DNA of 64,000 nt from Escherichia phage ManiWeber_Bas99 (PQ850618.1); one strand, 5' to 3'; numbered from the stretch's first letter, positions 1,429-63,087 are shown. A program made the numbers and translations. The notes: generated by a model from the letters alone, not told the origin.

Positions 1429-1431
1429 CAA

Positions 1432-2140: not shown

Positions 2141-2179
2141 AATATTTTATGAACTATTTATGATCACCATACATATCAT

Positions 2180-2208: not shown

Positions 2209-2246
2209 ATAGATTGATTCCCTTTCACTGTCAGGTGGCGTTAACA

Positions 2247-4622
2247 ATGAAAATTCTTGGCATAAAACTCTGGGAGAAGACGCAACCAGAAGCCGAACCA
2301 GCGGAGATGCCGCCAGGCGACCCATTGGCACCGTTTGAACGCCTTGAAAGGCGCGGCAGCGGTCAACGCTGGGAAAAGACTGAAAGCAATCGACCGACCT
2401 TTAAAACGGTTGATGACTTCCCTTTATATGAGCCTGATATTAATGGCGATGGTGTTGCAATCATAAAAGGTCGTTCAGTCGATTCCGCAACAGTATCCAA
2501 AAAGGTTATGGATAATGCCTTAAAGAACATCAGTTCAGAAGGGCAAGTCAACCCATACACAGTACCTATTCAACTTCAAAACTGGTATTTGTCACAGTCA
2601 TTCATCGGCTATCAAGCTTGTGCCATCATCGCACAGCATTGGCTGGTGAACAAGGCGTGTTCCATGGTAGGCCGCGATGCGGTCCGTAAAGGTTGGGAAG
2701 TCAAATCCAGTTCTGAGTCAGAATTGTCAGTACAGGCAAGCGAACGCCTAAAGCAAATTGATAAAGAATTTAATATCAAAGAGCACTTAGTTGAAGCCGA
2801 ACGATTCAAAAATATTTTTGGTATCCGCGTCATCATATTTGATGTGCGTAGCGATGACCCAGAATATTACAGCAAGCCTTTTAACATTGATGGCGTGACA
2901 AAGGGGTCTTATAAGGGAATCATTCAGGTTGACCCTTATTGGATGATGCCGTTTCTGACGTCTGAAAACACAGCAGACCCTGCATCACAGCACTTCTATG
3001 ACCCAGAATATTGGGTAATCAGCGGACAACGTTATCATCGCAGCCACCTCATAATCTTGCGCAACGATGAGCCAGCTGATATTCTCAAGCCGACTTATAT
3101 TTACGGCGGCATTCCTCTGACTCAGCAGATTTATGAACGCATCTATGCCGCTGAACGTACCGCCAACGAAGCGCCATTGCTGGCGATGTCCAAGCGTACA
3201 ACGACGCTGCGGACCGACGTTGACAAGGCTATTGCCAATGAGCGGTCTTTTGCAGAACGTCTGATGATGTGGATCAAGTACCGCGACAACTATGCAGTCA
3301 AAGTGCTTGGCCAAAAAGAAGAGATGGACCAGTTTGACATCAACTTGTCAGACTTCGACAGCATCATCATGAACCAGTACCAGCTTGTGGCCGCAATCGC
3401 AAAAGTTCCGTCGACCAAACTGCTTGGGACTTCGCCAAAAGGCTTTAACGCCACTGGTGAATTCGAGATGGTCAGCTATCACGAAGAGTTGGAAACGTGC
3501 CAGCAGCATGACCTGACAAAAATTCTCGACCGCCATTACAAAATCCTTCTCAAATCAGAAGGGGTGGATGTCGATGTTAAGGTTGCATGGGAACCAGTTG
3601 GCTCACTTACTGCTACTCAACTTGCAGAAATCAATGATAAGCGAGCCAACACTGGCAAAACTCTTATTGATGCTGGCGTCATTTCTCCTGATGAAGAGCG
3701 CGACCGCATCAAAGACGACAAAAACAGCGGCTACAACCGTCTGCCGGAAGACGCAGCAGAAGAAACCCCAGGGATGTCTCCAGAGAATATGGCATTGCTT
3801 GGCAAGTCTGCTGGTGAAGTCCTGCAAGGTAAGGCCGATATTGAACAGGCGAAAGCTGATGTCGTTAAGATGGGCGGCCAGTTCTATAGCGAAACAGGTA
3901 TTATGCCAGAGGGTGCCGCGCGCGGTGAGTTGGCGGAAAACCCTGACAAAGCGCCTGTCGAAATCAACATGGACGATACCGATGATGAATCAAGCCATCA
4001 GGTTGATGTCCTAACGCAGTTGAAAGAAGGGCTGGAGGGTATTGCGGATTACTACCTGAAAGAAGGTCAGGATGTGGATTTTGACCCTCAAAAAGATTCA
4101 CGGTCGGTGCAACCGTCTACCCTTCCAAGCGTTAAAGGACACGTCGTCAACTTACGCCACAACGTGGGTAAAATGGACGCAGCATCATTACCTAAGATGA
4201 AGTTGCACGGAATGATTCTTGGCATTGAGAATCCGCGAAACAGCATTCGTAGAGGAAACAGCCTTGACGGTGAATGGGCCGTGAAGATGCCGCACCACTA
4301 CGGATTCATCAAGGGCACCAAGGGCGCAGACGGTGATGAAGTCGACTGCTTTGTGGGTCCAAATCTGAAGTCGCCGAAAGTCTTTATCGTGAACCAAAAC
4401 GATAACTACTCTGGCGAGTTTGATGAACACAAGTGTATGCTTGGATTCGATTCAGCAGAAGAAGCGAAAGAAGCTTATCAAGCATCATTTGGTAACGGTT
4501 GGAACGGATTCGACTCAATCCACGAATTAGATGTGAACTCATTCAAGGAGTGGTTGAAGGGTGATTGCTCTCAAGCATACGGAGCACTCAATAATCCTAC
4601 TAATTCACCGAAGCAAGGTTGA
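2247..4622 (+). CDS. portal protein with C-terminal inorganic-pyrophosphatase-like domain
   Basis: About 790 aa immediately after TerL and before the MuF-like gene, the expected portal position; ATG at 2247 preceded by AGGTGG. C-terminal ~130 aa contain HHYGFIKGTKGADGDEVDCFV and AEEAKEAYQASF, resembling the PPase motifs YPxNYGxIxxT..DGDPxDVLV and [12 protein letters not shown]. Confidence 0.7.
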   Translation: MKILGIKLWEKTQPEAEPAEMPPGDPLAPFERLERRGSGQRWEKTESNRPTFKTVDDFPLYEPDINGDGVAIIKGRSVDSATVSKKVMDNALKNISSEGQVNPYTVPIQLQNWYLSQSFIGYQACAIIAQHWLVNKACSMVGRDAVRKGWEVKSSSESELSVQASERLKQIDKEFNIKEHLVEAERFKNIFGIRVIIFDVRSDDPEYYSKPFNIDGVTKGSYKGIIQVDPYWMMPFLTSENTADPASQHFYDPEYWVISGQRYHRSHLIILRNDEPADILKPTYIYGGIPLTQQIYERIYAAERTANEAPLLAMSKRTTTLRTDVDKAIANERSFAERLMMWIKYRDNYAVKVLGQKEEMDQFDINLSDFDSIIMNQYQLVAAIAKVPSTKLLGTSPKGFNATGEFEMVSYHEELETCQQHDLTKILDRHYKILLKSEGVDVDVKVAWEPVGSLTATQLAEINDKRANTGKTLIDAGVISPDEERDRIKDDKNSGYNRLPEDAAEETPGMSPENMALLGKSAGEVLQGKADIEQAKADVVKMGGQFYSETGIMPEGAARGELAENPDKAPVEINMDDTDDESSHQVDVLTQLKEGLEGIADYYLKEGQDVDFDPQKDSRSVQPSTLPSVKGHVVNLRHNVGKMDAASLPKMKLHGMILGIENPRNSIRRGNSLDGEWAVKMPHHYGFIKGTKGADGDEVDCFVGPNLKSPKVFIVNQNDNYSGEFDEHKCMLGFDSAEEAKEAYQASFGNGWNGFDSIHELDVNSFKEWLKGDCSQAYGALNNPTNSPKQG

Positions 4623-4623
4623 T

Positions 4624-5475
4624 ATGGCTTTTAAAGCTTCGAAAAAACGTGAACGCCGCTCACCCGATAGAGTCGGGCGCGGCAGTCCGATAATCCCATC
4701 CAACGCTATTGCGATGGCCTATCGTCGTGAGATGAAAGGTCTTTGCTATGCGATGATTGACGACTATCAAGCAGGAATTGCTGAGTGGCTTGAAAAGAAG
4801 CAGGTTAAAAAGTTCTTTGCGCAAGACTCTGCTGATTCAACTTTTCAGACCTTGATGAAGCGACTGCAACTGAAATGGGCAAAAGCTTTCGCCCGTGTCG
4901 GGTCAAAGATTGCCGCAGATTTCATCAAGTCAGTTGAAAAGGGTGCCACTTCTGCTACATTTGCAAGTCTTAAATCTGCAGGAATAGAAGCGCCAAAAGC
5001 CACATATAATAAATTCGTTGAGAACACTCTTAAAACAAGCGAGACGTTCAACACGACTTTAGTGACTAAGGTTGGCGAAGATATTCACAACAGGGTGTAC
5101 GAAGCGGTGATGCTTTCGCTGACTTCGCCAGACCCAGCGCAACAAGGCACGTCAGGCATTCAGGCGGCATTAAGAAATGTAAAACACTTCTCTGCAAAAC
5201 GCGTAGACCTTATCGCTAAAGACCAAACGAGCAAACTTTATTGCGTATTAAGTGATGAAAGGATGCGACAGAATGGCGTTGAGGAATTTGAGTGGGCGCA
5301 TTCAGGAGCAGGCAAAGAGCCGCGAATATCGCATGAGCATGTCGATGGAATGAGATTCAAGCTTGATGACAAACGCTTATGGGAAGTAGGTGGAGAACTT
5401 AAGTTCAAAAAGGGTGACATCGGTCCTCCTGGATGGGCGATACACTGCAAGTGCAGAAAAATACCAATTATCTGA
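4624..5475 (+). CDS. head morphogenesis protein (Mu gpF / SPP1 gp7-like)
   Basis: 284 aa directly after the portal gene; TerL-portal-F synteny typical of Mu-like head modules. Confidence 0.6.
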   Translation: MAFKASKKRERRSPDRVGRGSPIIPSNAIAMAYRREMKGLCYAMIDDYQAGIAEWLEKKQVKKFFAQDSADSTFQTLMKRLQLKWAKAFARVGSKIAADFIKSVEKGATSATFASLKSAGIEAPKATYNKFVENTLKTSETFNTTLVTKVGEDIHNRVYEAVMLSLTSPDPAQQGTSGIQAALRNVKHFSAKRVDLIAKDQTSKLYCVLSDERMRQNGVEEFEWAHSGAGKEPRISHEHVDGMRFKLDDKRLWEVGGELKFKKGDIGPPGWAIHCKCRKIPII

Positions 5476-5482
5476 GGTCATT

Positions 5483-6403
5483 ATGACGATACCAATCAAC
5501 ACATTCCCTCTATCTGGACAAACTCCAGTCTTGCCTGCGGTGTATGCTAATGGCTTGGCGATTGTCTCAGAATTCACTTCTGATAAAAACTTGATTGTTC
5601 CACTGAGCCCGCCGCTTGCATCGGGGTACAACTCAGTAGGTCAATTCTTTATGATTGGCAATGATGGCGATTCGACCAGCAAGCCTAATCTGACATTGTC
5701 TGTACCTAAGATGAACATCACCGACGTTCAAACTGGCTTGACTGCATCAACAATCACCATTGCTTTTGGAGAAGCAGTGATTATAGGAATGGAGTCTGGA
5801 GGGTCCAAGAATGCTGTCGCCGTTAAGGTAGTCAAATCCAGCGACAACCAATACACTTTACCAGCTGCGACGGCTTCCGTTCTCGGCGGCGTCAAAATAG
5901 GAAGCGGAATAAGCGTCGCAGGTGACGGTACAATTAGCGTCACTCAATACTCATTGCCGATTGCGTCAGCATCTACTTTAGGCGGCGTAAAGGTCGGTAC
6001 AACTCTATCAATTGATGGTTCCGGTGTGCTTAACGCAGCGGCAAGCACCGTCCAGAATGCCACGAACAGTGTTAGCAATCCTCCAACCACTTTGGTTAAT
6101 CTGGCAACATTAAACCTTCCTGCAGGCAAGTGGCTGGTCACGGCAAGCCAATTGACCGTTGCAACAGCAGGCGTTCAAGCGAATACCGGAATTACAGTCA
6201 AATTGTCAACAAGCAATTCAGATATTACGGATGATGCATTTACCATGTCAGCTGGCATTCGGGCTGCAGGTCGTTTCGGCGGCAACATCCCAACAAAAGT
6301 AATTACTCTTGCCGCGCCTGGTAATGTGTATTTAAACTATCAGTGCACCGACGCGTTGACATCTACCGTTTACGGACAGATCACCGCAATTAAGCTGAAC
6401 TAA
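5483..6403 (+). CDS. virion protein with tandem LGGVK(I/V)G repeats (fiber-like)
   Basis: ATG at 5483 with GAGGT SD; two repeats ASVLGGVKIGSGISVAGDGTISV and ASTLGGVKVGTTLSIDGSGVLNA; Gly/Thr/Ser-rich. Confidence 0.45.
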   Translation: MTIPINTFPLSGQTPVLPAVYANGLAIVSEFTSDKNLIVPLSPPLASGYNSVGQFFMIGNDGDSTSKPNLTLSVPKMNITDVQTGLTASTITIAFGEAVIIGMESGGSKNAVAVKVVKSSDNQYTLPAATASVLGGVKIGSGISVAGDGTISVTQYSLPIASASTLGGVKVGTTLSIDGSGVLNAAASTVQNATNSVSNPPTTLVNLATLNLPAGKWLVTASQLTVATAGVQANTGITVKLSTSNSDITDDAFTMSAGIRAAGRFGGNIPTKVITLAAPGNVYLNYQCTDALTSTVYGQITAIKLN

Positions 6404-6589
6404 AGAGGAAGTTATGCAAAAGATTATTCAGTCACGTTATGTTAAAGTGCGAAATATTAATTGCAACTCTTTGCTTTCTTGGAAATGGGCTGTTTATGAC
6501 TCGATGTTGATTGGCGTTTTAGTGGCAGGAGTGCTATTTAATATTCACTGAATTCATCGGCAAAGGATTGCCGAGAGTTTTATACGTAT

Positions 6590-6860
6590 AATGACGTATC
6601 ATCCGTATCAAGTAAGTTGTTGTTTTCAAAAGAATCTTACGGATGATACGGATGATACGCGTTGCCGCCGTACTATATAGGAATTCAAATAAATTAATTT
6701 AAAATTATATATCTAATTTAATTTTATTTTTTTATAAACTCTTATATGTGAAAAGTATCCGTATCATCCGTATCATCCGTATCACACCAGTGATAGCGCG
6801 GCTTATACACCGATACGGATAAAAATACGCCTCATTTTATCCGTATCATCCGTATCACAC
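6590..6860. repeat. iteron-like repeat element A
   Basis: Units of CATCCGTATCA in both orientations (6594-6610 forward, 6639-6660 reverse, 6756-6785 forward triple, 6811-6820 reverse, 6839-6858 forward) around an AT-rich core carrying GAATTC; homologous to the element at 58.7 kb. Confidence 0.6.
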
Positions 6861-6914
6861 TAATAAAGGCGCGGCTATATCGGTTGTTATACATATTCAA
6901 ACCATAATTATTGT

Positions 6915-6943
6915 TTGCCTAAGTTTTTTTCATTAGATATAAT
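6915..6943 (+). promoter_or_regulatory. sigma70-like promoter (TTGCCT-17-TATAAT) upstream of scaffold gene
   Basis: Hexamers at 6915-6920 and 6938-6943 with a 17-nt spacer, about 25 nt upstream of the start codon. Confidence 0.4.
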
Positions 6944-6966
6944 ACACAATACTTATTTGAGGGTGG

Positions 6967-8385
6967 ATGCGAATGCAAACGGCACGCGAAATTGACAAAA
7001 ATGGATTCTTGACGATTATGGGTTGTCCGATTTCGTCATTTGGCATTTTTGATTATTCTGCTGGTCAAGTTGGTCTTGATGGTGATCCGAATCGCATCGT
7101 AAAAGTCTATCGCCCTGAGTCAGCGGTGAAAGACCCCGAAGCGATAGATTCATTCAAAAATATCCCTTTCATCGACAATCACGAAATGCTTTCTGGATTT
7201 GAAGGTGATGAGGATAACACAGCACCCGAAGAGTATGGCGTTGATGGCGTTCTAACTGGCAATGTTTATTATGACAAGCCATGGATGCGCGGCGACCTTA
7301 AAGTGTTTAGCCGTCGTCTGAAGAAGGCCATTGATTCTGGAAAGGTTGACTTGTCTTTGGGCTATGACTGTGAATTCATCATACAGTCTGGAGAGTTTGA
7401 CGGGCAGCCGTATGAAGTGGTACAGACAACTCTTCGCGGCAACCACATTGCTCTCGTGGACGTTGGTCGAGTACCAGGTGCACGGGTGCTGGATGGTCGT
7501 TGCTTTGACCATCTTTGTTTGACGACTGTAACACCATCCAACGAGGATTTAGACATGCCAAAACCGTTAAAAGGTAAAGCGCGTGATAATGCTGTTGAAC
7601 AGCTGAAATCACTGATCCCTGCGCTCGAACAATTTCTGAATGAAGAGAGCACCGAAGCGGCTCATCAGGACGAAGTTGAAGTGAAAGCAGAAGAGAAGGA
7701 TTCAACCGAAGAACGTGAAGAAGTGATGGTTGATCCAGAAGTTAAAGCAGAAGCTGAAGAAACTCCAGAAGGTGAAGAGAAGTTTGAAGTTGAAACTGAA
7801 TCTCACGCTGGCGGCGAGCTTCCGCAACTGATCAGCCAAATCGAAGCACTTATTGCAAAACTGAAAGGTGGCGCGGTAGGTGATGAAGAAGAAGTTGAAG
7901 CCGAAGTCAAAGACGAAGAAGTTGAAGTCAAGGCTGAAGATGTATCACCTTGCGACAAAGCTGAAGATGTGGTTAGCGGCCTGCAAAACAGCAACGTAAA
8001 GGGGGCTTCGGTCGAAAAAGATGACAAACCGACAAAAGCGGCGAAAGCGTCGCCAGGTCCAGCAAAAGGGGAACACTCAATGGCATCTGATTCAGCAGTT
8101 GCTGCTTTCTACGCTGATTCTGCTCGTAAGAATAGCCTCTACCAGCGCCTGTCTAAAGTTGTTGGTGCCTTTGATCATGCAACTATGGACTCCAAGTCCG
8201 TAGCGAAATATGGCGCTAAAAAGTTAGGCTTGAAGTGCGTTGATGGTGCTGAGTTTGACGTGGTGGATAATTATCTGCGCGGCGTTGAACACGGTCAAAA
8301 ACAGCGTGTAGTCGCAAAACAAAAGGCCGCTGCGGATTCTGCAGCGACTGACGAAGCATTTGAAGCTTGGTTGAAAGGGGAATAA
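6967..8385 (+). CDS. scaffolding / prohead core protein
   Basis: 472 aa; N-terminal region resembles DUF2213-type phage head proteins (from memory, unverified); central acidic Glu/Lys/Val repeats typical of scaffold proteins; lies upstream of the capsid gene. Confidence 0.5.
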   Translation: MRMQTAREIDKNGFLTIMGCPISSFGIFDYSAGQVGLDGDPNRIVKVYRPESAVKDPEAIDSFKNIPFIDNHEMLSGFEGDEDNTAPEEYGVDGVLTGNVYYDKPWMRGDLKVFSRRLKKAIDSGKVDLSLGYDCEFIIQSGEFDGQPYEVVQTTLRGNHIALVDVGRVPGARVLDGRCFDHLCLTTVTPSNEDLDMPKPLKGKARDNAVEQLKSLIPALEQFLNEESTEAAHQDEVEVKAEEKDSTEEREEVMVDPEVKAEAEETPEGEEKFEVETESHAGGELPQLISQIEALIAKLKGGAVGDEEEVEAEVKDEEVEVKAEDVSPCDKAEDVVSGLQNSNVKGASVEKDDKPTKAAKASPGPAKGEHSMASDSAVAAFYADSARKNSLYQRLSKVVGAFDHATMDSKSVAKYGAKKLGLKCVDGAEFDVVDNYLRGVEHGQKQRVVAKQKAAADSAATDEAFEAWLKGE

Positions 8386-8387
8386 AC

Positions 8388-9005
8388 ATGACTTTCCAAA
8401 CTAGTGTAGGCCGTCAATATACAACTGGCTTTCCTGGCGACATCGTTCGCGACGGCCCACAGCGTGGGAAGCCAGGCCGAATTGCCAACGCTAACGAAGG
8501 CGCAAACGTAAACGCCATCAGCCGTGTGTTCGGTTTTAAGACTGACGTATCCTTAATGGGTACTGGTCAAACCAAAACTTTGGGCGCGCAGGACTTTGAA
8601 GTTGAGCTGGGCGGCACTAACTACTACGGCATCCTCGGCAATAGCAAGCGTTACGCGCTGTATGGCAACTCTACTGGTCCTTTGGGTGCCAGCATGGTCC
8701 TGCCTCAATATAGCGAAGGCGAGTTCTATGATATGTGCACGGGCCTCGTAGTTGAAGTATTCAACCCAAGCACCAGTCCGCAGACGCTTAACTATGGCGA
8801 CCTGCTTGCTTATGTACCTAAAGGCATTTCCAGCGGTAACAACCCGAACAACTTGCCTATTGGTGCAATTATCGCCTATACTGGCTCATTGCCAACTGGC
8901 ATGGTTGCCATCCCAGGCGGTATTGTGATTGACCCGACGACTATTGCCCTTTCCGGCCCAAGCGTCCAGTCTTCCACTTATACCATTGTACAATTGACTC
9001 GTTAA
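8388..9005 (+). CDS. head structural protein (decoration/auxiliary candidate)
   Basis: 205 aa between the scaffold and capsid genes; Gly-rich. Confidence 0.45.
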   Translation: MTFQTSVGRQYTTGFPGDIVRDGPQRGKPGRIANANEGANVNAISRVFGFKTDVSLMGTGQTKTLGAQDFEVELGGTNYYGILGNSKRYALYGNSTGPLGASMVLPQYSEGEFYDMCTGLVVEVFNPSTSPQTLNYGDLLAYVPKGISSGNNPNNLPIGAIIAYTGSLPTGMVAIPGGIVIDPTTIALSGPSVQSSTYTIVQLTR

Positions 9006-9019
9006 TAGGCAGGTGAATA

Positions 9020-10159
9020 ATGACTCGCATTAGCCAAACACACTCTCGCCTCCCAGCGAGCAAGGTGCGCCCTTTTGATATGCAATCCGTGACCGACGCG
9101 GCTGTTTCCCAGCTTGCGCGTATCGGTATTGTGTTTGATTCCGCGATTGTGCGTGATCAGATTGAGCACTTAAACCGTGCAGGCGCTTTCCGCGTAGGTG
9201 ACGCCGCATTTACTGCGCCGCAGACCACGCCATCAATCCCGACCCCGCTGCAGTTCCTGCAACAGTGGCTGCCTGGCTTCGTCAAAATCATGACCGCTGC
9301 CCGTAAAATTGACGAGCTGGTTGGTATTGACACCGTTGGTCAGTGGGAAGATGCAGAAATCGTTCAGGGCATCGTTGAACCAGCTGGCACCGCAGTTGAA
9401 TATGGTGATTTCACCTCTATTCCTCTGGCAAGCTGGAACGTGAACTTTGAACGCCGTTCCATCGTTCGCGGTGAAATGGGCATGGCAGTCGGCATGCTGG
9501 AAGAAGGCCGCGCGTCTGCGATGCGTCTGAACTCTGCAGAGACCAAGCGCCAGCAGGCTGCTGTATCTCTGGAAATCATGCGTAACGCAATCGGCTTCTA
9601 TGGTTGGTATAACGGGAACAACCGCACGTTCGGCTTCCTGAATGATCCAAACCTGCCAGCGGCAATGACTTCAAACACCACTTCCGGCTGGGCTACTGCG
9701 ACCTTCCAACAGGTGACTGCAGACATCCGTTTGATGGTTCGTCAAATCCGTGTCAACTCTCAGGATCAGATTGATCCAGAGAAGGTTGATATGACTCTGG
9801 CGCTGCCGACCAACTCTATTGATTGGCTGTCAAACACCACCGACTTCGGTATTTCTGTACGTGACTGGATCACCCAGACTTATCCGAAGATGAAGATCAA
9901 ATCCGCACCGGAACTCAACGGCGCACTTGGCAGTGACCCGACTTTCCTGAATGTGGCATATCTGTACGCTGATCACATCGATTCCTCAATTGATGGCTCA
10001 AGCGATGATGGTTCCGTATTCAGTCAGCTGGTCCAGACTAAGTTTATGACTCTGGGCGTTGAGAAACGCGCTAAGAGCTACGTTGAAGACTACGCAAACG
10101 CAACAGCAGGCGTTCTGCTCAAGCGTCCTTTCGCAGTCGTCCGTATGACTGGTATCTAA
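9020..10159 (+). CDS. major capsid protein
   Basis: 379 aa; ATG at 9020 with AGGTGA SD; position after scaffold; followed by a stable hairpin as commonly seen after capsid genes. Confidence 0.55.
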
Positions 10160-10184
10160 TTGCTGTGATTACACAGTAAAACAC

Positions 10185-10214
10185 ATGGGGCGTGGTCGAA
10201 AGGCTTCGCCCCAT
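10185..10214 (+). terminator. stem-loop after capsid gene (8-bp stem ATGGGGCG/CGCCCCAT)
   Basis: Perfect 8-bp inverted repeat with a 14-nt loop; no clear U-tract, so possibly an attenuator or RNA stability element. Confidence 0.35.
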
Positions 10215-10274
10215 ATCAATAGACCTCAAGGGCTGTAGGGGCTTATCTGAGGCTTATATAAATAGGACTACAAA

Positions 10275-10739
10275 ATGCCAAAATACATCGTTTCAACTAT
10301 GTCTATGTCAGTCAACTACACTTTCTATACGGAAGTGAAAGAAAACCCGAATGCAAAAGCTGGTTCAGGCGCTCTTCCAAATATTCGCAAACAGATTCTG
10401 ATCAAGGGCGGTGCTGGTCTTACTTCGGCAACTTCCGGCTTTGGTGAAATGGCAAAAGGCGCTGATGGTGCACCTTTGTGGACTCCTGAAGGAATCGTCA
10501 CCGTTGTAAGCGATGCTGATTTTGAACATTTAAAAGATCATCACGTATTCAAGCAGCACCTTGAAAAAGGTCTGGTTAAAGTGGTTAACCACGACATCGT
10601 TGGCAATCATAAAGCTGTCGCTAAAGAAGTGCGCGGCATGTCAGATGACCCGTTCGCGCCTATGACGCGTGAGACGGCTGACAAGCGCATCAAGGTTAAA
10701 TTGAGCGGCGAACAAGAAGATGATTTGTTCCGCGTTTAA
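10275..10739 (+). CDS. hypothetical head/virion protein
   Basis: 154 aa ORF in the structural operon. Confidence 0.5.
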   Translation: MPKYIVSTMSMSVNYTFYTEVKENPNAKAGSGALPNIRKQILIKGGAGLTSATSGFGEMAKGADGAPLWTPEGIVTVVSDADFEHLKDHHVFKQHLEKGLVKVVNHDIVGNHKAVAKEVRGMSDDPFAPMTRETADKRIKVKLSGEQEDDLFRV

Positions 10740-43717: not shown

Positions 43718-44563
43718 TTATTCCGCTTGATCACCGTCTTCAGCATCGTCGTTGGATTCAACATCGACAAACTCGATGTGACCCATCTCTTCCAGCTTGC
43801 TCAGGTAGGAGCGAACGGAAGCGCCAAACAGTTGATCTTTAACTTTTTCGCCCAGCTCATCGATAGACTGTGCCACACCAACTTCGCCTTCTTTGATCGC
43901 CGCCAGAACGCGTCCACGGGTGGAATGCTCTTGCGGCTGGCTCAGGCCGTTGCCAGTGTAGATGAAGTGAGTGGCTTTTGCACGACGCTGACCGTTTGCC
44001 TTTTTAGCAGCCTTACGTTCTGCGATGGCTTTGCGACGTTCTTCAGCTTCTTTCTTACGCTGTTCTTTCTGCTGTTCTGCAGCTTCTTTAGCCGCAATCT
44101 TAGCAGCTTCACGCTCTGCCTTGCGTTTCGCTTTAGCTTCTTCTTTGGCCTTTTCTTTTTCGGCCTTCGCTGCAGCACGGGCTTGATCACGCTCTGCTTT
44201 CTTGGCCGCAGCCTGCTCAGCTTTCAGGCGCTTGGCTTCTTCTTTAGCCTTTGCCTTTTCGATTTCTTTTGCTGCTTTAGCGGCTTCACGCTCTGCTTTC
44301 TTAGCAGCAGCCTTTTCTGCACGCTCTTTAGCTTTCTTAGCTGCTTCTTCAGCACGCTTCTGAGCCTTCTCATCAGCAGCCTGCTTGCGTTTCAACGCAG
44401 CTTCTTCACGCTTGGCTTGTTTTTCCTGCTCACGCTTCTGGCGTTTTTCTTCGGCTTCTTTCTTTTTAGCCAGGCGTTTTTCTTCAGCCACGCGACGACG
44501 TTCTGCTGCGGCTGCTTGTTTTTCTTCTTTAGATAATACTTTGATTGCTTCGGCCATATTCAC
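43718..44563 (-). CDS. Lys/Ala/Glu-rich low-complexity protein with globular acidic C-terminus
   Basis: 281 aa; about 170 aa of KAEREAAKAAKE-type repeats, then a non-repetitive domain ending in an acidic tail. Confidence 0.55.
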   Translation of the reverse strand: MNMAEAIKVLSKEEKQAAAAERRRVAEEKRLAKKKEAEEKRQKREQEKQAKREEAALKRKQAADEKAQKRAEEAAKKAKERAEKAAAKKAEREAAKAAKEIEKAKAKEEAKRLKAEQAAAKKAERDQARAAAKAEKEKAKEEAKAKRKAEREAAKIAAKEAAEQQKEQRKKEAEERRKAIAERKAAKKANGQRRAKATHFIYTGNGLSQPQEHSTRGRVLAAIKEGEVGVAQSIDELGEKVKDQLFGASVRSYLSKLEEMGHIEFVDVESNDDAEDGDQAE

Positions 44564-44716
44564 AGTCCTTAAATAAATTAGTTTATTTTATATTCCCCGT
44601 TTGGGATAACTTAATTATGCCTTCAGTTGCCGCCAGTAGCAACTAAAAACTATGGCGGCAATGCCACTTTAATTAAACTGATTTTCAGTTTTATTTTTCG
44701 TAAATTTACGTCAACA

Positions 44717-45901
44717 TTAACGCGCTTTCAAATCACGGTACACGGTCAGATTCTTCTTAGCACGGGTGATAGCGGTGTACATCATCTTGGAGTACGGAAC
44801 GCCGCGCAAGATTTCTTCCAGCACGCACACATTGTCCCACTCGCTGCCTTGCGATTTGTGCACCGTGATGACATAGCCGTAGTCCATCCCGCCAACAGCA
44901 CGTTGCGCTTCTTTGCGCACTTCCTGATCAGTAGAGAAGGAAAGAGGATTAATCTTTACCTTTATATCTTTACCATCAGTCAATGAACGCAAGTTGACAT
45001 ACATTATTTCATTCGACTCATCTTCATCCCTTTCAAAGTCCGGCACTGGCTCATAGCTAATAACAATCCCTTGCTCGCCATTACAGAATCCTGGCCCGTG
45101 CTGGTTGAAGGTGCAAATAACTTTCTCGCCGATTCCTGGCATTGGCGTTATACGTCCGCTCACTTGCCGTAATAATGAATTCCATTTATCTTTGGTGCTA
45201 TTATAGGAGCAAATAATTTGATCATCTTCGCCCATGAATTTCTTCAATGCAGTAACGCGCGGCGATTCTGCCAATACTTTGACGTCATCGTATTCACGCG
45301 GAGGAAGGCGGTTGCCTTGGCGCACGAAGAAGGAGGCGCGGATTATATTGGACTCTTTCCCTTGCCGCATGATTTCTGTTAACAGTACGTCAACGGCATC
45401 TTCAGTAAAGTAGGCGGCGGCTTTTACCGGAGGGACTTGTCCAATGTCGCCTAATGCCAGGACAGGGATGCGGTGATCAAGAAGGCGCTCTGTGTCCCAC
45501 TCGCCAACCATCGACGCTTCATCGAGTACAACAAGGTGCGGCCTTTCATCCAGCTTTGACTTTCTCGAAAAGATTGGCTCATTGTCGTCATTTACGCCGC
45601 GCACGTTATAGATGAACTGGTGAAGGGTCTTAGCGCCACGACAGCCTTTTTGCTTTAATCGGCTTGCAGCCTTTCCGGTCGGCGCAATATAGATAGCTCC
45701 ATACTCACCGACACAACGGCGCACAATCTCGCGAGCAATAGAGGTTTTACCAGTTCCTGCATAGCCAGCGATGAAAAACACGCGCTTCGTCGTTTTACCG
45801 TCCTGCAATCGCTTGTACCATGCAACGGCTTTCTCGATGGCGTCGATTTGTTGCGCGTTAAACTGAATCACTGGCTCATCATTAAATTCTGGAATGTTCA
45901 T
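44717..45901 (-). CDS. Dda/RecD-like SF1B DNA helicase
   Basis: 394 aa; Walker A AGYAGTGKTS, Walker B LVVLDEASMV, C-terminal helicase motifs. Confidence 0.7.
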   Translation of the reverse strand: MNIPEFNDEPVIQFNAQQIDAIEKAVAWYKRLQDGKTTKRVFFIAGYAGTGKTSIAREIVRRCVGEYGAIYIAPTGKAASRLKQKGCRGAKTLHQFIYNVRGVNDDNEPIFSRKSKLDERPHLVVLDEASMVGEWDTERLLDHRIPVLALGDIGQVPPVKAAAYFTEDAVDVLLTEIMRQGKESNIIRASFFVRQGNRLPPREYDDVKVLAESPRVTALKKFMGEDDQIICSYNSTKDKWNSLLRQVSGRITPMPGIGEKVICTFNQHGPGFCNGEQGIVISYEPVPDFERDEDESNEIMYVNLRSLTDGKDIKVKINPLSFSTDQEVRKEAQRAVGGMDYGYVITVHKSQGSEWDNVCVLEEILRGVPYSKMMYTAITRAKKNLTVYRDLKAR

Positions 45902-58710: not shown

Positions 58711-58952
58711 CGTATCATGACGTATCATTGGGCTATTGATTTATAAGGAAAAATACGCTGATACGGATGATACGGATGCAAACATAATATATATAGAATT
58801 CCAGAAAATTAATTAACTCCATTTTGAATTAATTTAAATTAATTTTTTTCTACATCCTCATACTTATACTAAACTTATATTTATACGTATTATCCGTAAG
58901 ATATAAGTAAAAACAAAGACTTGCGGCAATACGGATGATACGTCATGATACG
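58711..58952. repeat. iteron-like repeat element B
   Basis: CGTATCATGACGTATCA (58711-58727), GATACGGATGATACGGATG (58759-58778), AT-rich core with GAATTC, TTATCCGTAAG (58889-58899), ATACGGATGATACGTCATGATACG (58929-58952); same units and core as the element at 6.6 kb. Confidence 0.6.
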
Positions 58953-59166
58953 CTTCAACCAGCCAGCAGCGGCTAAGTCATTGATTTGCATAGCAAGCGG
59001 CGAAAGGGATGGATTTCTTTTATACGTATCAAACAGTACACCACGCACCACGGTCCGTTATCCATTCAGCAATATGATTTGTGTACGTTTATAGCCATAA
59101 TGAACATCAATCTGCACTTGAATATAATGTTCATCCATTGTATAATTCACACTATTAATTTGCACT

Positions 59167-59655
59167 ATGGGATTTTGCACTATGAGTCAAGATTATGTAG
59201 CGATGCCTGAAGACTTTGAAGACCCGCGATTTGCAGAGCACAATCAGGCTTTATTCGATGAGTTCATTGACCTTGTTATTCAGGGCCATGACATGCGCGC
59301 AGCTTTTGCACTAGTATTTGGAATGGAAGTTGCAACGGATAACTACACTGGCCAGCGAATCCTTTGCACGCAACGCAATCCATACTACAAGATGCGCTTC
59401 AAAAAGCGTATGGAAGAGATGCCACTCAAGGATTTGTGGAGCGTAAAAGGTGCAATTCACAATTTGGTTAAGCTTGTGCGTGATCCAGAAGTCGCAGCGT
59501 CAGCCAAGCTTAATGCTATTCGTGAACTGAATATCATCTACGGCATCACGATGATTGATGAAAACGGCAATAGTAAAATGGGCCGTTCCATGGACGATTT
59601 CTACAAGGATTTTGGAGAGGCGGCCAAAGAAGGTGAGCAATTCTCCCGCCACTAG
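59167..59655 (+). CDS. hypothetical protein
   Basis: 162 aa (alternative ATG at 59182); both candidate starts are immediately preceded by a copy of the TTTGCACTAT motif. Confidence 0.45.
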   Translation: MGFCTMSQDYVAMPEDFEDPRFAEHNQALFDEFIDLVIQGHDMRAAFALVFGMEVATDNYTGQRILCTQRNPYYKMRFKKRMEEMPLKDLWSVKGAIHNLVKLVRDPEVAASAKLNAIRELNIIYGITMIDENGNSKMGRSMDDFYKDFGEAAKEGEQFSRH

Positions 59656-59666
59656 CCAATTTGCAC

Positions 59667-59708
59667 TATAAAACGGCCCTAGAACACATCTTCTCCACTT
59701 CTAGGGCC
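59667..59708 (-). terminator. hairpin terminator candidate (10-bp stem GGCCCTAGAA/TTCTAGGGCC)
   Basis: Perfect 10-bp inverted repeat with a 14-nt loop between convergent genes; U-rich tract on the minus strand. Confidence 0.35.
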
Positions 59709-59769
59709 ATCGGTAATACGACGGGGAAGGTTACAACCATAAACGCGTTAGAAAGTGTATTATTATAAG

Positions 59770-60033
59770 TCATCTTTTAGTCACTTTACGTAACAATTTA
59801 CGACCTTCAGCCGTCCAATCGAACGACTCCACCAGCAGATTCGCACTATAACCTAAGATGATGCGCCCTTTCTCGTTATCGACCCGCCAACAAGTCTCGA
59901 ATAGCATTCGATTTGCACTATTAACTATCGCCGCAACGCGCGTAGGGTAAACGCAATTTGCACTATGGTCATAAAGGGATAAGGTGCGACCACTTCCGAT
60001 GGACAACGTAGCGATGAGAATGAGCGTATTCAT
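59770..60033 (-). CDS. hypothetical protein
   Basis: 87 aa; contains three in-frame SAN tripeptides encoded by the antisense of the repeated motif. Confidence 0.4.
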   Translation of the reverse strand: MNTLILIATLSIGSGRTLSLYDHSANCVYPTRVAAIVNSANRMLFETCWRVDNEKGRIILGYSANLLVESFDWTAEGRKLLRKVTKR

Positions 60034-60083
60034 AAGCCACCAATTTGCACTATGAAAAGCGACCCCGAAGGGCCGCCATTCGA

Positions 60084-60710
60084 TTAGATAATCTGGAAGG
60101 TGTAGGACTTGTTGCCGAACTCGAAGTTCAAGCGCCCAGCTTCCTTAAGCTTCATGCGGAAGCGAATGTGCTTGCTATCCGGTAATCCCAGCGCGGCGAA
60201 CGCTACGCGGACCGATTTGAACTCGCCTACACCCTCGACCATGACACCGTTACGGGTAAGACGCTTTTGCGCCACTTCCTTATTATCCCAGCTTTTTGCA
60301 ATACCTTCGCTATTCGAACGGCGATGGGAAGGAGTTCCATTTTGCACTACGCAATTTGCACTATCGTTTAAACCGCTCTTAACGAAGGCTTCATATTCTT
60401 CGTCGGTCATCGCGTCGAGTTCTTCCTGGGTCGGCTCAGCCTTTTTAACGACCGCACGCGCCTTATGCGTTTTTACATCGCTGGACACTTCCTCGCGCGA
60501 CTTCGCGTCTGGGATGGGCGATTCGTTGGACGGCTCATCTAGCGCGTTTAAGGACTCGATTAACGCGATGACGCGAGTCTCAGCGGTCCGGCGGTCCGAA
60601 AATTTCTTAATCGGCTTCGAACCGGAATTTGCATTATAAAATGCAACGAGGTCGGCGGTCTTAGTTGCGATAACGTCGCCGCTAGTCGAGAAACGATTTA
60701 AGCTAACCAT
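60084..60710 (-). CDS. hypothetical acidic protein
   Basis: 208 aa; SD AGGAG upstream of ATG; carries the motif as DSANCVVQ. Confidence 0.5.
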   Translation of the reverse strand: MVSLNRFSTSGDVIATKTADLVAFYNANSGSKPIKKFSDRRTAETRVIALIESLNALDEPSNESPIPDAKSREEVSSDVKTHKARAVVKKAEPTQEELDAMTDEEYEAFVKSGLNDSANCVVQNGTPSHRRSNSEGIAKSWDNKEVAQKRLTRNGVMVEGVGEFKSVRVAFAALGLPDSKHIRFRMKLKEAGRLNFEFGNKSYTFQII

Positions 60711-60790
60711 AATAAACTCCTATTTGTTAGGGCGCTAGGCGCGAAAGAATTTTATTAAAGCGCCGCGCACGACGCTCTAAAAATCCTCTC

Positions 60791-61075
60791 TTACGCTTCG
60801 ACGAGGGAGAAGGTCTCAAATTCTTCTTCGCCCATAACGAGTAAGATATTACCGATTTCGACCGCTTCGAAGAAATATCCGTTAACGTTTACTTCGAAGG
60901 CTTCGCGGTCCGATTCCGGTAGCGCCGCGTAAAGTTTAAAAGCCTCGGCGACCGTTACCCCACCCGCCTCGATAGTTTGGCCTACGTTCGCGGCGTAGAC
61001 TTCGGATAAAATTTGTTTTACGCCGTAGTTCTCGACGATAGCGTTACGAATAGAAGAAACGTTAAGAATAGCCAT
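60791..61075 (-). CDS. small protein, paralog family member 1
   Basis: 94 aa; N-terminus MAILNVSSIRN and internal VNVNGYFFEAVEIG parallel the 61710 gene; conserved CAACTAGGAG upstream. Confidence 0.5.
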   Translation of the reverse strand: MAILNVSSIRNAIVENYGVKQILSEVYAANVGQTIEAGGVTVAEAFKLYAALPESDREAFEVNVNGYFFEAVEIGNILLVMGEEEFETFSLVEA

Positions 61076-61299
61076 TTTAAACTCCTAGTTGGGAGAGGCG
61101 TTAACGACCTATTCGTTAACTCATCCCGTCCCGATATGAGTACATTATAATATAGTGTAGAAAAAAGTAAAGCACTTTTTCGATAAAAATGCGATAAATT
61201 ATTTTATCTTTTTTCTTTACTTCTTCGTACACTCGCGTATACTTGTTTATATCGAGACGGGCGATGGCCCTTTCTTCTACTAGCATCGGGAGCTTTATT

Positions 61300-61602
61300 A
61301 TGACTACTTTAATCTCTTCCATCCTTACTTACGACGAAGACCGCTTAACCGTTCGCTCTCTTATCGCCGCCGTTAACGCGGAACTAGAATCTAGCGCCAT
61401 TAAGGTCCGCGCGGTCGCCTTCATCGGCCTTTCCTTCGACGATATGAAGTATGCCGAACGTAGCGCCATCCGCTTCGCGAAGACCGACGACGAAGCCGTT
61501 ACCCTTATCGAGACGGTTACGCCGCGCGGCGAAGCGTTAATTATCGTCGAGTATATCGACGTAGAAGGCGATAAATCTTATAAACATTTTATCGCAGAAT
61601 AA
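61300..61602 (+). CDS. small protein, paralog family member 2
   Basis: 100 aa from ATG 61300 (GGGAG SD); MTTLISSIL... with conserved upstream TTTACTTCTTCGTACACT box. Confidence 0.5.
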   Translation: MTTLISSILTYDEDRLTVRSLIAAVNAELESSAIKVRAVAFIGLSFDDMKYAERSAIRFAKTDDEAVTLIETVTPRGEALIIVEYIDVEGDKSYKHFIAE

Positions 61603-61709
61603 CGAAAAAGTGCTTTACTTCTTCGTACACTAAGACTATAATGTTTTATATCGAGAGGGGATGAGGTAGCGAATAGGTCGCTGCCCTCCCGACCAACTAG
61701 GAGATTATT

Positions 61710-62000
61710 ATGATTACTTTAGCCGCTATCCGTTCCGCTCGCGTCGAGACTTCCGAAAACTCTAACGTATTTGGCGAAACCTTAGAGAGCGTTTATCTCT
61801 CTAACGTAGACGCAACTATCGAATCCATTTATGAGCCGATCAACTTCCTCGACCTTTACAAGTATCGCGATGAGGACATCGTGTCTTGCCGCGTAACGAT
61901 CAACGGCTTCGTCTATACGATTACCGAAATCGGCGGCGAATATCTCGCGGTCCCGCAACTCGGCGGCGAAGTAACTTATTTTAAAATCGTCTCCTTATAA
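61710..62000 (+). CDS. small protein, paralog family member 3
   Basis: 96 aa; MITLAAIRS...VTINGFVYTITEIGGEYLAV; conserved upstream box and CAACTAGGAG SD. Confidence 0.5.
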   Translation: MITLAAIRSARVETSENSNVFGETLESVYLSNVDATIESIYEPINFLDLYKYRDEDIVSCRVTINGFVYTITEIGGEYLAVPQLGGEVTYFKIVSL

Positions 62001-62019
62001 TACCCTTCCGTTACTAATA

Positions 62020-62045
62020 GGCCGCGCTTAGTCGCGGCTTTTCTT
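62020..62045 (+). terminator. rho-independent terminator
   Basis: GCCGCG-CTTAGT-CGCGGC hairpin followed by TTTTCTT. Confidence 0.55.
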
Positions 62046-62642
62046 CGCCCCTATCTCGGTGCGCTCCTACGCGAAAACTCCTTTATCCTTACCTTCGTCG
62101 TCGCATAATCTTCGTCGAGATGCTCCTTAGTTCGCATAACAGGTATTACGTTAAATGGAGAACATCGCGTAAGTCGTTGTTTTATATAGACACCTATATC
62201 GGACCGTTAGCGAGGGTCGCGTAAGTCGTTGTTTTATAAAGGCGCAAAACTTTCCCTTCGTTCCGAACTAAAACGAGGAATATGCCGACCCTTCGCCCGA
62301 AAATAGTACGCATGCGATATTACCGACATCTAGAATAATCCCTCCCGATATTATTACGCGCTCAATCATTAGCTTTCGAATCATTATGCTGCATACTATT
62401 ATGCGCCAAATCATTAGCCTTCGAATTGTAACGCTGGAAACTGTAACGTCGATTGATTATTGCGTTCGTGTGGTTTTTAGGACATGGGTCTTTTGGTGCG
62501 TTTTGCTACTTGATGGAATTTGCAGTACACTAATCAAAATACGACACATTTGGTCCACTAACTTTTCAAAGAAAAAGTCCTAGACAGTACCGTACTATTT
62601 TGTACCCACAGGAAATTTGCCGTACACTCCTGCGCGGCAGGC

Positions 62643-62670
62643 AAAAATAAAGGGCCGCACTAAGCGACCC
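62643..62670 (-). terminator. rho-independent terminator
   Basis: Minus-strand GGGTCGC-TTAGT-GCGGCCC hairpin followed by TTTATTTTT, downstream of the 62707 gene. Confidence 0.55.
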
Positions 62671-62706
62671 ACAACCCACGATTCACGGTTAAATCAGCAA
62701 CACCCA

Positions 62707-63087
62707 CTATTCACTCTTATGGGCATCACCAAAGCCATCAGCAATCTGGCTGATCAACGACTCAATGGACACGGTTTTACCAATTGATCGAGCGGTAATA
62801 GCAAGCATATTATCAATCAAACCACGATTGACTTCACATGTTCCAGGCTTTGACTCATCTTTAGGACCACCAAAAAGCTGGTCGCGCAGACTTTCAAGAG
62901 AACGCTCAATATTTTCCAACTTCTCTTCTAAATCGGATTGGCGACGTAAAACCCACGTCAAGTCACGGTTGCCAACTTCCAATCCATCAGAATAGCAAGG
63001 TGGAGCGTCAATTTTGATGCTGGAACCAAAAGCAATGCCGCTGCCTTTAGTATATGTGTGGCTAATAGAATCATTTTTATTTGACAT
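62707..63087 (-). CDS. hypothetical protein
   Basis: About 126 aa from the internal ATG at 63087 (the track ORF extends to 63153); coiled-coil-like centre. Confidence 0.45.
   Translation of the reverse strand: MSNKNDSISHTYTKGSGIAFGSSIKIDAPPCYSDGLEVGNRDLTWVLRRQSDLEEKLENIERSLESLRDQLFGGPKDESKPGTCEVNRGLIDNMLAITARSIGKTVSIESLISQIADGFGDAHKSE

Follow-up and report, generated by a model that had tools for sequence, protein, structure and literature searches.

A strong local loss of CA/TG dinucleotides at one end of the terminal repeat of Wifcevirus and its possible origin in the exposure of early phage DNA

A 2-kb zone at one end of the direct terminal repeat (DTR) of Wifcevirus is strongly and specifically depleted of the dinucleotides CA and TG. 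The window, the 64-kb stretch of DNA analysed here, belongs to this group of E. coli myoviruses with genomes of about 68 kb, and in its core purged zone (60400..62450) the observed/expected ratio (o/e) of CA/TG was 0.39, against 1.18 in the rest of the window. The zone held 100 CA and TG steps in 2094 bp, compared with 307 +/- 15.5 (minimum 264) in all other segments of the same size (z = -13.4), and counts per 200 bp showed that the depletion weakens inward to about 59800 and stops about 120 bp short of the DTR end. The original prediction had set the start of the segment at 59700, which proved too far inward, and had judged its composition to be distinct by eye; the difference was stronger than that for CA/TG, CpG and codon use, but GC was equal to that of the genome (0.466 vs 0.463), so that a GC plot would have missed the purge. 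As far as our searches show, a local dinucleotide purge of such strength has no phage precedent in the literature, and nothing comparable was found in about 0.5 Mb of unrelated viral contigs. The explanation that we favour, although tentatively, is a pre-early module transcribed by the host polymerase in first-exposed DNA, which may have been purged to escape sequence-specific DNA targeting, by analogy with T5.

Depletion was confined to the eight trinucleotide classes that contain CA or TG (0.16-0.63), all other classes standing at 0.76 or above, and the loss was offset by a gain of CG and TA, with a CpG o/e of 2.05 in the zone against 1.10 in the rest and TpA at 1.20 against 0.67. The zone was symmetrical between strands (50 CA, 50 TG), with CA/TG at 0.32 of expectation in coding and 0.47 in non-coding DNA, and the depletion affected every codon phase, the 3-1 junction among them. 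This specificity for CA/TG, together with the strand symmetry and the depletion in non-coding DNA and in every phase, points to a constraint on double-stranded DNA. A codon or tRNA cause was ruled out, since the 3-1 junction and non-coding DNA were equally affected. The codons CTG, TTG, TCA and ACA were never used in the purged segment, where Gln, His, Cys, Trp and Met were depleted (Gln 1.0% vs 4.0% in the reference, His 0.5% vs 1.6%, Trp 0% vs 1.4%). Within the zone, the dinucleotide effect accounts for the counts of longer words, with 9 CTAG observed and about 7 expected. The pressure against CA/TG is ongoing in Wifcevirus: among four genomes, minority substitutions created CA/TG 31 times where 63-78 were expected, and existing CA/TG were lost 65 times.

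A local mutational bias at the repeat end, caused by repeated single-strandedness, by heteroduplex repair during recombination or by an editing enzyme, could drive CA/TG to CG or TA. The changes consist entirely of transitions, which leave the purine/pyrimidine pattern intact (YR-step fraction 24.4% vs 25.3%), they lie in a repeat for which every cycle requires recombination or duplication, and the depletion weakens with distance from one DTR end. However, such a bias would have to turn C into T and also A into G within one and the same dinucleotide, on both strands and with net GC unchanged, and we know of no deaminase or mismatch-repair bias with this outcome. The equal counts of 50 and 50 reveal no strand asymmetry, the DTR is affected only in part, with a sharp boundary at position 2000 in phage MyoSmar, and the altered amino-acid content and promoter hexamers imply that selection tolerates or favours the state. 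We consider a mutational origin improbable.

The DTR spans about 3.75 kb (58821..62574). Identical 3784-bp copies stand at both ends of the WFC record, their last 300 nt matching window positions 62275-62574 at 100% identity, and the Mansfield DTR (1-3673, from PhageTerm) corresponds to 58821-62493; a terminal repeat of about 3.7 kb was given by Korf et al. Its part of normal composition contains a small-terminase-like gene (59167..59655, + strand; phrog_4783, annotated in Mansfield with reference to HHpred). On the minus strand follow g87 (59770..60033), the last gene of the predicted P1 operon, near-normal in composition and with a homologue in phage Kyle, and g208 (60084..60710; phrog_4730), a conserved protein common to Pbunavirus and many relatives, which straddles the zone boundary with only its 5' part inside. 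Beyond the small genes p1, p2 and p3 lies a terminator 3' of p3 (62020..62044, + strand; annotated in WFC and in Mansfield at 3200-3224). The outer edge of the zone carries non-coding direct repeats (62165..62437, + strand; 2 x 25 nt and 2 x 45 nt, families D4 and D5), analogous to repeats at 3419-3591 of the 3603-bp DTR of Kyle, and the boundary motif AATTTGCAGTACACTAATCA (62517..62536, + strand) is near-identical to one at the Kyle DTR boundary. The inner DTR also includes an array of nine same-strand ATTTGCACTAT motifs (59158..60637, + strand), for which pattern counts gave an expectation of 2.0 and nine matches were reached in 0 of 100 shuffles; the TTYGCACTAC array is kept in Kyle. An Rfam search of the DTR found no RNA family.

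A Chi site, GCTGGTGG (59829..59836, - strand), faces RecBCD arriving from the terminase-gene end of the DTR, and Chi and near-Chi sites are one-way in the DTRs of Wifcevirus, Myosmarvirus and Kylevirus (5/0, 12/0 and 7/0). Since all of them face RecBCD from the terminase-gene end, this end appears to be the one exposed to host nucleases. The zone lies directly behind this one-way cluster, as might be expected if it served as a dedicated substrate for recombination or replication, remaining as a long 3' tail that joins terminal repeats into concatemers and kept free of primase (E. coli DnaG, CTG) or Chi-like sites. In Wifcevirus no trinucleotide is more depleted than CAG/CTG, which also ranks within the lowest two or three in Myosmarvirus and Kylevirus (0.16-0.21 across the three genera), and the repeats of DTR phages must recombine or be duplicated. 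This explanation is nevertheless hard to credit, because all CA/TG trinucleotides are depleted on both strands rather than CTG alone, and conversion to single strands would silence the early genes.

Three predicted sigma-70-type promoters lie in the zone: P1 (61144..61172, - strand; CTTTACT-16-TATAAT), which would drive p1, g208 and g87, P2 (61215..61243, + strand; CTTTACT-16-TATACT) for p2, and P3 (61613..61642, + strand; CTTTACT-17-TATAAT) for p3. They are the sole matches to CTTTACT-N(15-19)-TATAMT in the 64-kb window and form one conserved family with 9-10 of 12 consensus matches. Their -35 hexamers read TTTACT, that is, TTGACA without its TG and CA, and a member of this promoter family located outside the zone in MyoSmar has CTTGACT. 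The expression cassettes are duplicated, as promoters plus leaders for P1 and P3 and as promoter plus start region for P2 and P3. P1 and the P3 region form the inverted repeat I2, with 88% complementarity, and the homologous 5' leaders of p1 (61073..61137, - strand) and p3 (61648..61712, + strand) form a 65-nt inverted repeat, I1, that is 77% complementary and carries the CGAATAGGTCG hairpin motif at 61105-61115 and 61670-61680, respectively. This motif also occurs in a leader of Serratia phage SMP (Myosmarvirus), and a scan of IMG/VR with the promoter-plus-leader pattern retrieved, among true relatives, only Wifcevirus. The TTTACTTCTTCGTACACT...TATATCGAGA box previously noticed in front of p2 and p3 was confirmed as a shared stretch of 19/19 identical nt (D12) plus a 24-nt block at 83%; it corresponds to a predicted sigma-70-type promoter plus leader. 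The CCAACTAGGAG element proposed upstream of every gene precedes p1 and p3, but p2 has GGGAG instead. A distinct expression class, as originally suggested, is upheld by the three promoters unique in the window, the DTR location and the small acidic proteins.

The zone roughly matches the three early transcription units, and a constraint on RNA or transcription in very highly expressed early transcripts might then shape it, for example through avoidance of an endoribonuclease specific for CA or UG, of RNA-polymerase pause sites, of spurious NTG starts or of spurious -35 or extended -10 elements. The stronger depletion in coding than in non-coding DNA and the TG of all bacterial start codons would be consistent with this. 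However, CA and TG are both scarce on the sense strand even in the single-strand operon of MyoSmar (14 and 22 per 1306 nt), the depletion extends 300-400 bp beyond the terminators, CTG is avoided although it is the best-served Leu codon of E. coli, and the actual promoters themselves avoid TG and CA. We regard such a constraint as quite unlikely to be the cause.

The three open reading frames and their N-termini were located correctly by the original prediction and are annotated coding sequences in Mansfield, WFC and Bas100. They encode small acidic proteins: p1 (60791..61075, - strand; 94 aa, pI 4.05), p2 (61300..61602, + strand; 100 aa, pI 4.65), which is specific to Wifcevirus, and p3 (61710..62000, + strand; 96 aa, pI 4.23). 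The proposal that they form a three-member paralogous family held only for p1 and p3, which share 29% identity (pairwise BLASTP E = 7e-5; Smith-Waterman z = 6.9, a score reached in 0 of 2000 shuffles). No relation of p2 to p1 or p3 was found by BLASTP or by the shuffle test, in which it scored no better than shuffles, nor by profile-profile comparison (probability 0.4%), and its AF2 model was too poor for use (pLDDT 45); its matching N-terminus stems from a duplicated 17-nt RBS/start segment and not from protein homology. Searches of the six DTR proteins against Pfam, NCBIfam and PDB sequences gave nothing usable, and PHROGs matched only two families, those of g208 and the terminase-like gene, neither with an assigned function. 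None of the DTR proteins showed a nuclease or DNA-binding domain in these searches, and homologues of T5 A1, A2 and Dmp were not found among them in Pfam, PHROG, NCBIfam or PDB. Like Ocr- and ArdA-type DNA mimics, p1-p3 are small and strongly acidic (pI 4.05-4.65) and would be expressed first, but p1 lacks the Ocr fold, and no resemblance to a known mimic is seen in either sequence or fold.

All 28 Wifcevirus records carry the segment, with identities of 93-96%. The same purge, with a trinucleotide signature common to the three genera, occupies the same DTR end in Serratia Myosmarvirus and Pantoea Kylevirus, beginning 100-200 bp from that end in each, where it covers different small genes; the protein that they share is only 36-49% identical. 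Serratia phage SMP has a second g208 copy outside the zone with normal composition, and the WFC lineage has another gene at the p1 locus in a zone purged to an equal degree. Composition thus tracks position and not ancestry. The purge was not found in Pbunavirus 14-1, in Salmonella phage PCSE1 or in about 68 IMG/VR loci of relatives, and a purely host-driven signature is unsupported given that PCSE1 lacks the zone.

These distributions bear on the original suggestion of recent acquisition, in which a foreign island would have brought the composition of its donor. The segment does differ in composition from the rest of the genome, and its small genes have no homologues beyond this phage clade. 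Against this stand its occurrence in every Wifcevirus record and at the corresponding DTR position in two further genera, its genome-like GC, the conserved core gene g208 that crosses the zone edge, a gene family purged within the zone and normal outside it, and the equally purged gene swapped in at the WFC p1 locus. Mobility genes are absent from the Mansfield, WFC and Bas100 annotations, and the composition was found in no sampled viral contig. Recent acquisition is already contradicted by these data and is rejected as extremely improbable.

The restriction phenotype of these phages provides a further line of evidence. According to the BASEL study, Wifcevirus resists restriction without known protection, yet is sensitive to EcoP1I, and the tested relative was resistant to five restriction systems and sensitive only to this one. 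The Bas100 DTR contains no site for the five resisted systems, compared with about 6.3 expected from genome density (genome-wide counts 38, 10, 4, 2 and 87), and seven AGACC (EcoP1I) sites in both orientations. The sites of the five resisted systems are absent from the remaining 1.6 kb of the DTR too, although its CA/TG content is normal. This match of sites and phenotype is a correlation over six systems, which inhibitor proteins alone could also explain. Modification of the DNA at CA/TG was rejected as the sole cause of resistance, as EcoRI and EcoRV have sites without CA/TG and both are resisted; no methyltransferase is annotated in Bas100.

Under the favoured explanation of an exposed pre-early module, the three strong promoters, predicted to be recognised by host sigma-70, would drive p1, p2, p3 and the conserved g208 from one end of the 3.75-kb DTR. 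The DTR would be unprotected in the cell while its own products are made, as in T5 first-step-transfer DNA, and these products may then shield the remaining genome or bring the host under phage control. DNA exposed in this way would have to be free of sequences recognised by DNA-targeting enzymes such as restriction-type systems. Long-lasting selection against CA/TG on both strands could have converted these steps to CG and TA by transitions, and may have been strong enough to alter codon choice, amino-acid content and even -35 hexamers. Removal of CA/TG would eliminate about half of the possible 6-bp sites, among them those of CAG type that enterobacterial type III systems recognise. What we infer is that the DTR precedes other DNA in entry or action, that its proteins protect, and that the selection came from restriction-type targeting. 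Against this explanation, no general reason favours CA/TG over other dinucleotides, and GA/TC is at least as common in enterobacterial type I sites; the other 1.6 kb of the DTR is normal in CA/TG, the DTR proteins do not match T5 A1, A2 or Dmp, and the first-step DNA of T5 itself has a different signature.

It is possible, if doubtful, that the selective agent was an undescribed DNA-targeting activity that depends on the CA/TG step, of enterobacteria or of the phage itself, and that this clade turned a 2-kb early module into 'stealth' DNA that such an activity does not see. Self-immunity is another reading: during a T5-like first step, a phage-encoded or phage-activated activity would attack or silence DNA via sequences containing CA/TG, for instance to destroy host DNA or to stop transcription, an early module without CA/TG would survive, and the rest of the genome would enter only once the activity was switched off. 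A purge at the dinucleotide level suits a low-specificity nuclease or binder better than restriction sites of 5-8 bp, the depletion weakens with distance along the P1 operon, and a very short latent period has been reported for Wifcevirus. However, the DTR proteins have no detectable nuclease or DNA-binding domain and no homology to T5 A1 or A2, neither degradation of host DNA nor two-step injection is reported for these phages, and the terminase-gene part of the DTR, with its normal CA/TG, would itself be attacked. We view self-immunity as unlikely.

With z = -13, proteins and promoters reshaped and the state kept in three genera, the purge stands out, and escape of exposed DNA from targeting offers a concrete explanation for the BASEL puzzle of restriction resistance combined with EcoP1I sensitivity. 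Sites inserted into or removed from the DTR are predicted to shift restriction sensitivity. Wifcevirus would provide a small system for the old T5 question of how first-entering phage DNA escapes nucleases, and if a CA/TG-reading activity does exist, the same logic could explain how T5-like first-step DNA survives the destruction of host DNA. The design of restriction-proof leading sequences for engineered phages could also draw on the three compact promoters and on coding without CA/TG.

Dinucleotide signatures are known from other systems, among them ZAP and repeat-induced point mutation (RIP), neither of which is known to exist in enterobacteria. The suppression of CpG in vertebrate RNA viruses by ZAP is imposed by a host sensor, but CpG is doubled in the Wifcevirus zone and not suppressed. 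RIP in fungi leaves its signature on duplicated DNA by converting CpA to TpA, but it lowers GC without a gain of CpG; the doubled CpG and unchanged GC of the zone do not fit a RIP-like mutation process. Avoidance of restriction sites (palindromes), of which genome-wide cases are well known in phages, reflects selection that removes short words read by host nucleases. Wifcevirus differs in avoiding a 2-bp step and not a site of 4-8 bp, and in a purge limited to 2 kb of a 68-kb genome that overrides amino-acid and promoter consensus. T7, like the layout predicted for Wifcevirus, has three strong host-polymerase promoters (A1-A3) near the genome end and a small, very acidic first product, Ocr. 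Its genome entry is slow and driven by transcription, and the relevant type I sites are not known to occur in its leading DNA. In contrast to T7, however, the Wifcevirus promoters are divergent and p1 has no Ocr fold, the T7 repeat is 160 bp long and gene-free, and we know of no report of a dinucleotide purge for T7.

The closest comparison is T5, but not as an exact parallel: T5 first-step DNA, in which CpG and GpC are raised, is distinct in CpG, GpC, AG/CT and GA/TC, whereas its CA/TG is normal (0.94 vs 0.99), and the Wifcevirus purge is dinucleotide-wide and far more extreme. The repeat is 10 kb in T5 and 3.7 kb in Wifcevirus, for which the two-step injection of T5 is hypothetical; of the sequence features that might mark an injection stop, boundary repeats were the only ones seen. 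T5 carries its early genes inside a long direct terminal repeat, with host-type promoters facing both ways and repeated sequences where the repeat meets the inner genome, and Wifcevirus shares this arrangement with predicted early genes and promoters; in T5, too, the first-step region is compositionally apart from its own genome (CpG 1.31 vs 0.79). Restriction of T5 reportedly depends only on sites in first-step-transfer DNA (Davison and Brunel 1979), and the match of DTR sites and restriction phenotype in Wifcevirus mirrors this dependence.

The original prediction of a compositionally distinct segment held, and the distinction proved to be a purge of CA and TG steps. The GC content is unremarkable (0.466 vs 0.463 elsewhere), whereas the observed/expected (o/e) ratios of CA and TG were both 0.39 in 60400-62493, compared with 1.18 and 1.17 in the rest of the genome; CpG stood at 2.05 (vs 1.10) and TpA at 1.20 (vs 0.67), and the remaining dinucleotides were unchanged. 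The segment has a CA+TG count of 100, against 307 ± 15.5 (minimum 264) in all other windows of equal length (z = -13.4). Among trinucleotides, exactly the eight CA/TG-containing classes were depleted, from CAG/CTG (0.16) to ATG/CAT (0.63), and no other class fell below 0.76. Approximately 206 CA/TG steps are missing, offset by about 108 added CG and 78 added TA; because this gain matches the deficit and pyrimidine-purine steps keep their share (24.4% vs 25.3%), the change amounts to transitions at CA/TG. Elsewhere, 44001-45000 holds the AT skew (-0.35) and GpC o/e (2.0) extremes of the whole window.

The purge is symmetric between strands (50 CA, 50 TG), extends over coding (o/e 0.32) and non-coding DNA (0.47), and affects each of the three codon phases, the codon junction included. 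This combination argues that double-stranded DNA, rather than tRNA or mRNA, is the target. The codons CTG, TTG, TCA and ACA are never used in the purged-zone genes; compared with the large genes of the phage, their products contain two- to many-fold less Gln, His, Cys, Trp and Met. To our knowledge, no mutational process yields C-to-T plus A-to-G changes at one step while preserving GC and strand balance. We tentatively propose that the direct terminal repeat (DTR) would be exposed DNA and the first to act, that the purged zone would be the part of it needing to remain intact and transcribed, and that CA/TG loss would be an extreme form of recognition-site avoidance. However, nothing testable sets CA/TG apart from other dinucleotides as the step for removal. 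The dinucleotide character of the purge would be better matched by a nuclease or DNA binder of low specificity that requires the CA/TG step, belonging to the host or to the phage during a first-step stage; we consider such an agent unlikely.

The window belongs to a Wifcevirus, a myovirus of E. coli and Shigella with a genome of about 68 kb, and 59000-63000 aligns at 93-96% identity with 28 phage records, among them SP13, Mansfield, WFC and BASEL phages Bas98-101. The DTR predicted by PhageTerm for Mansfield is 3673 bp, Korf et al. put the repeats of WFC and WFH at about 3.7 kb, and the WFC record carries identical 3784-bp copies, one per end, its last 300 nt mapping to 62275-62574 with 100% identity. 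These data place the DTR at 58821-62574, with the purged zone entirely inside it. The outer edge of the zone is sharp (about 62400-62450, ~120 bp short of the DTR end) and the inner edge gradual, fading through gene g208 (60084-60710, -) to about 59800. At the boundary between DTR and unique sequence lies the motif AATTTGCAGTACACTAATCA (62517-62536), with a related copy ~100 bp further on (62614-62628); it is conserved as AATTTCACAGTACACTAATCA at the DTR boundary of Pantoea phage Kyle (about 3625-3650), and is a candidate site of repeat-end generation. AT-rich intergenic DNA at 6600-6900 and 58711-58952 contains repeated CCGTATCATCCGTATCA/ATACGGATGATACG motifs, among them an 18-nt perfect inverted repeat (58711-58728/58935-58952) on either side of the left DTR boundary. 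Nine copies of ATTTGCACTAT, all on one strand (59158-60637, +), span the terminase-like gene terS (59167-59655, +), g87 (59770-60033, -) and g208, and several have CCACCAGC-like (reverse Chi) sequence in front of them; Kyle has a TTYGCACTAC array (575-1485) in the equivalent position. The ATTTGCACTAT array could be bound by terminase or a regulator, or act as a stop signal.

The g208 protein is 36-49% identical between Wifcevirus and the Serratia phages SMP and MyoSmar (Myosmarvirus) and Kyle (Kylevirus). All three genera share a DTR layout (3.56-3.78 kb) in which a part of normal composition holds a small-terminase-like gene, and a purged part of 1.8-2.1 kb, beginning 100-200 bp from the DTR end, holds promoters of the form GCTTTACT-N-TATAAT together with a g208 homologue and small acidic genes; trinucleotide profiles are closely alike across the three genera. 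Two g208-family copies in SMP (5605-6639 and 10167-10670) provide a natural control: CA/TG is scarce in the copy inside the zone but at a normal level in the other, 3.5 kb away, indicating that composition follows position. The zone edge falls within g208 in both Wifcevirus and Kyle. The suggestion of recent acquisition was thus rejected, given the same purge and layout in Myosmarvirus and Kylevirus; an acquired island was likewise contradicted by the normal out-of-zone g208 of SMP and by the WFC lineage, where a different gene occupies the locus of p1, one of three small acidic proteins of the zone, and the zone is equally purged (93 CA+TG). No such zone was found in the whole genome of Pbunavirus 14-1 (lowest 1-kb window 0.77), in the 68 of 70 kb scanned of Salmonella phage PCSE1, or in about 68 of 79 IMG/VR loci encoding g208 homologues, and among unrelated viral contigs (about 0.5 Mb) no 1-kb window was below 0.59. 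In two IMG/VR relatives, CA/TG dips mildly (0.62-0.68, CpG 1.6) exactly over the g208 homologue (7001-7800; about 7100-7900), and these may be intermediate states. In a comparison of four Wifcevirus genomes, CA/TG arose by minority substitution 31 times, against 63-78 expected, and existing CA/TG was lost in this way 65 times; the count is rough, as WFC has a non-homologous gene within the alignment. The purging pressure thus appears to be ongoing.

The proposed distinct expression class was supported by the promoters: the window's three matches to CTTTACT-N(15-19)-TATAMT all lie in the purged segment. These predicted promoters would drive p1 (60791-61075, -), g208 and g87 (P1, 61144-61172, -), p2 (61300-61602, +; P2, 61215-61243, +) and p3 (61710-62000, +; P3, 61613-61642, +), with a terminator after p3 (62020-62044, +). 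All three promoters have the -35 hexamer TTTACT, which equals the consensus TTGACA stripped of its TG and CA, and a MyoSmar promoter of the same family, outside the purged zone, reads CTTGACT. The three proteins are acidic (pI 4.05, 4.65 and 4.23 for p1, p2 and p3). Searches of Pfam, PHROGs, NCBIfam and PDB returned no match for p1, p2, p3 or g87 (for PHROGs, none with a function), and only function-unknown PHROG families for g208 and the terminase-like gene. The predicted three-member paralog family was reduced to p1 and p3, which share 29% identity (E = 7e-5; Smith-Waterman z = 6.9, a score reached in 0 of 2000 shuffles), 88% similar promoters and 77% similar 65-nt leaders, arranged as an inverted duplication. 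No relation of p2 to either was detected by BLASTP, shuffle test or profile comparison; p2 and p3 are identical at 19 promoter bases and have a 17-nt RBS/start segment in common, which accounts for the like N-termini originally noticed. Further members of the p1/p3 family are Kyle gp6, MyoSmar gp3 and, in the WFC lineage, the gene found in place of p1; the family comprises 26 clusters in 5.8 billion proteins, exclusively from these phages, and p2 is confined to Wifcevirus. The p1 model weakly resembles A0A513QBN4 of Shigella phage MK-13 (BFVD, 93 aa; Foldseek E = 0.035, TM 0.58, 12% identity), a modelled likeness that may extend the family beyond the three genera. The 5' leaders of p1 (61105-61115, -), p3 (61670-61680, +) and an SMP early gene (about 10715-10725) have in common a small hairpin carrying CGAATAGGTCG, for which Rfam gave no match; Kyle has a looser version, GGAATAGACCG.

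Chi (GCTGGTGG) and its one-mismatch variants, counted on both strands of the DTRs, run one way only (window 5/0, Kyle 12/0, MyoSmar 7/0). Kyle has nine exact Chi in 1.7 kb (255-1979), MyoSmar four in 350 bp (2107-2454), and the window DTR one (59829-59836, -) plus four near copies. In all three genera they are oriented toward RecBCD entry from the terminase-gene end, directly before the purged zone. This orientation suggests that the terminase-gene end is exposed to RecBCD and, as read from sequence, it is probably the leading end; the one-way cluster resembles a shield against, or a decoy for, RecBCD. If the terminase-gene end leads, a Chi shield would precede the purged early module, and the repeats at the boundary (62165-62437) would occupy the position of the T5 injection stop signal. 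It is also conceivable that the polarity is opposite, the purged end leading and being guarded by a protein cap.

We take CACAG to be the recognition sequence of EcoCFT_II. Its count in Bas100, 87, equals the published EcoCFT_II count and is given by just 4 of 512 pentamers, an exact match that supports the assignment. Counts of AACN6GTGC, GAGN7GTCA, GAATTC, GATATC, CACAG and AGACC in Bas100 (4, 2, 38, 10, 87 and 90) reproduce the BASEL figures exactly. The Bas100 DTR contains no sites for the five systems that this phage resists, vs about 6.3 expected from genome density, and seven AGACC sites in both orientations; Mansfield and WFC DTRs show the same pattern, and the window's own DTR has one EcoKI site. 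In phage T5, work on 'ris' showed that restriction sites matter only in the first, unprotected DNA, whose products then protect the rest; how T5 DNA avoids degradation is still unclear. By analogy, the Wifcevirus DTR site pattern would follow the same logic as T5 first-step-transfer DNA. The T5 terminal repeat (1-10219) is, as in Wifcevirus, compositionally distinct from the adjacent genome (10220-30000), but in other steps: CpG o/e is 1.31 vs 0.79 (x1.67), GpC 1.52 vs 1.07 (x1.43) and AG/CT 0.79 vs 1.10 (x0.72), and CA/TG is normal, with the switch in composition coinciding with the repeat boundary.
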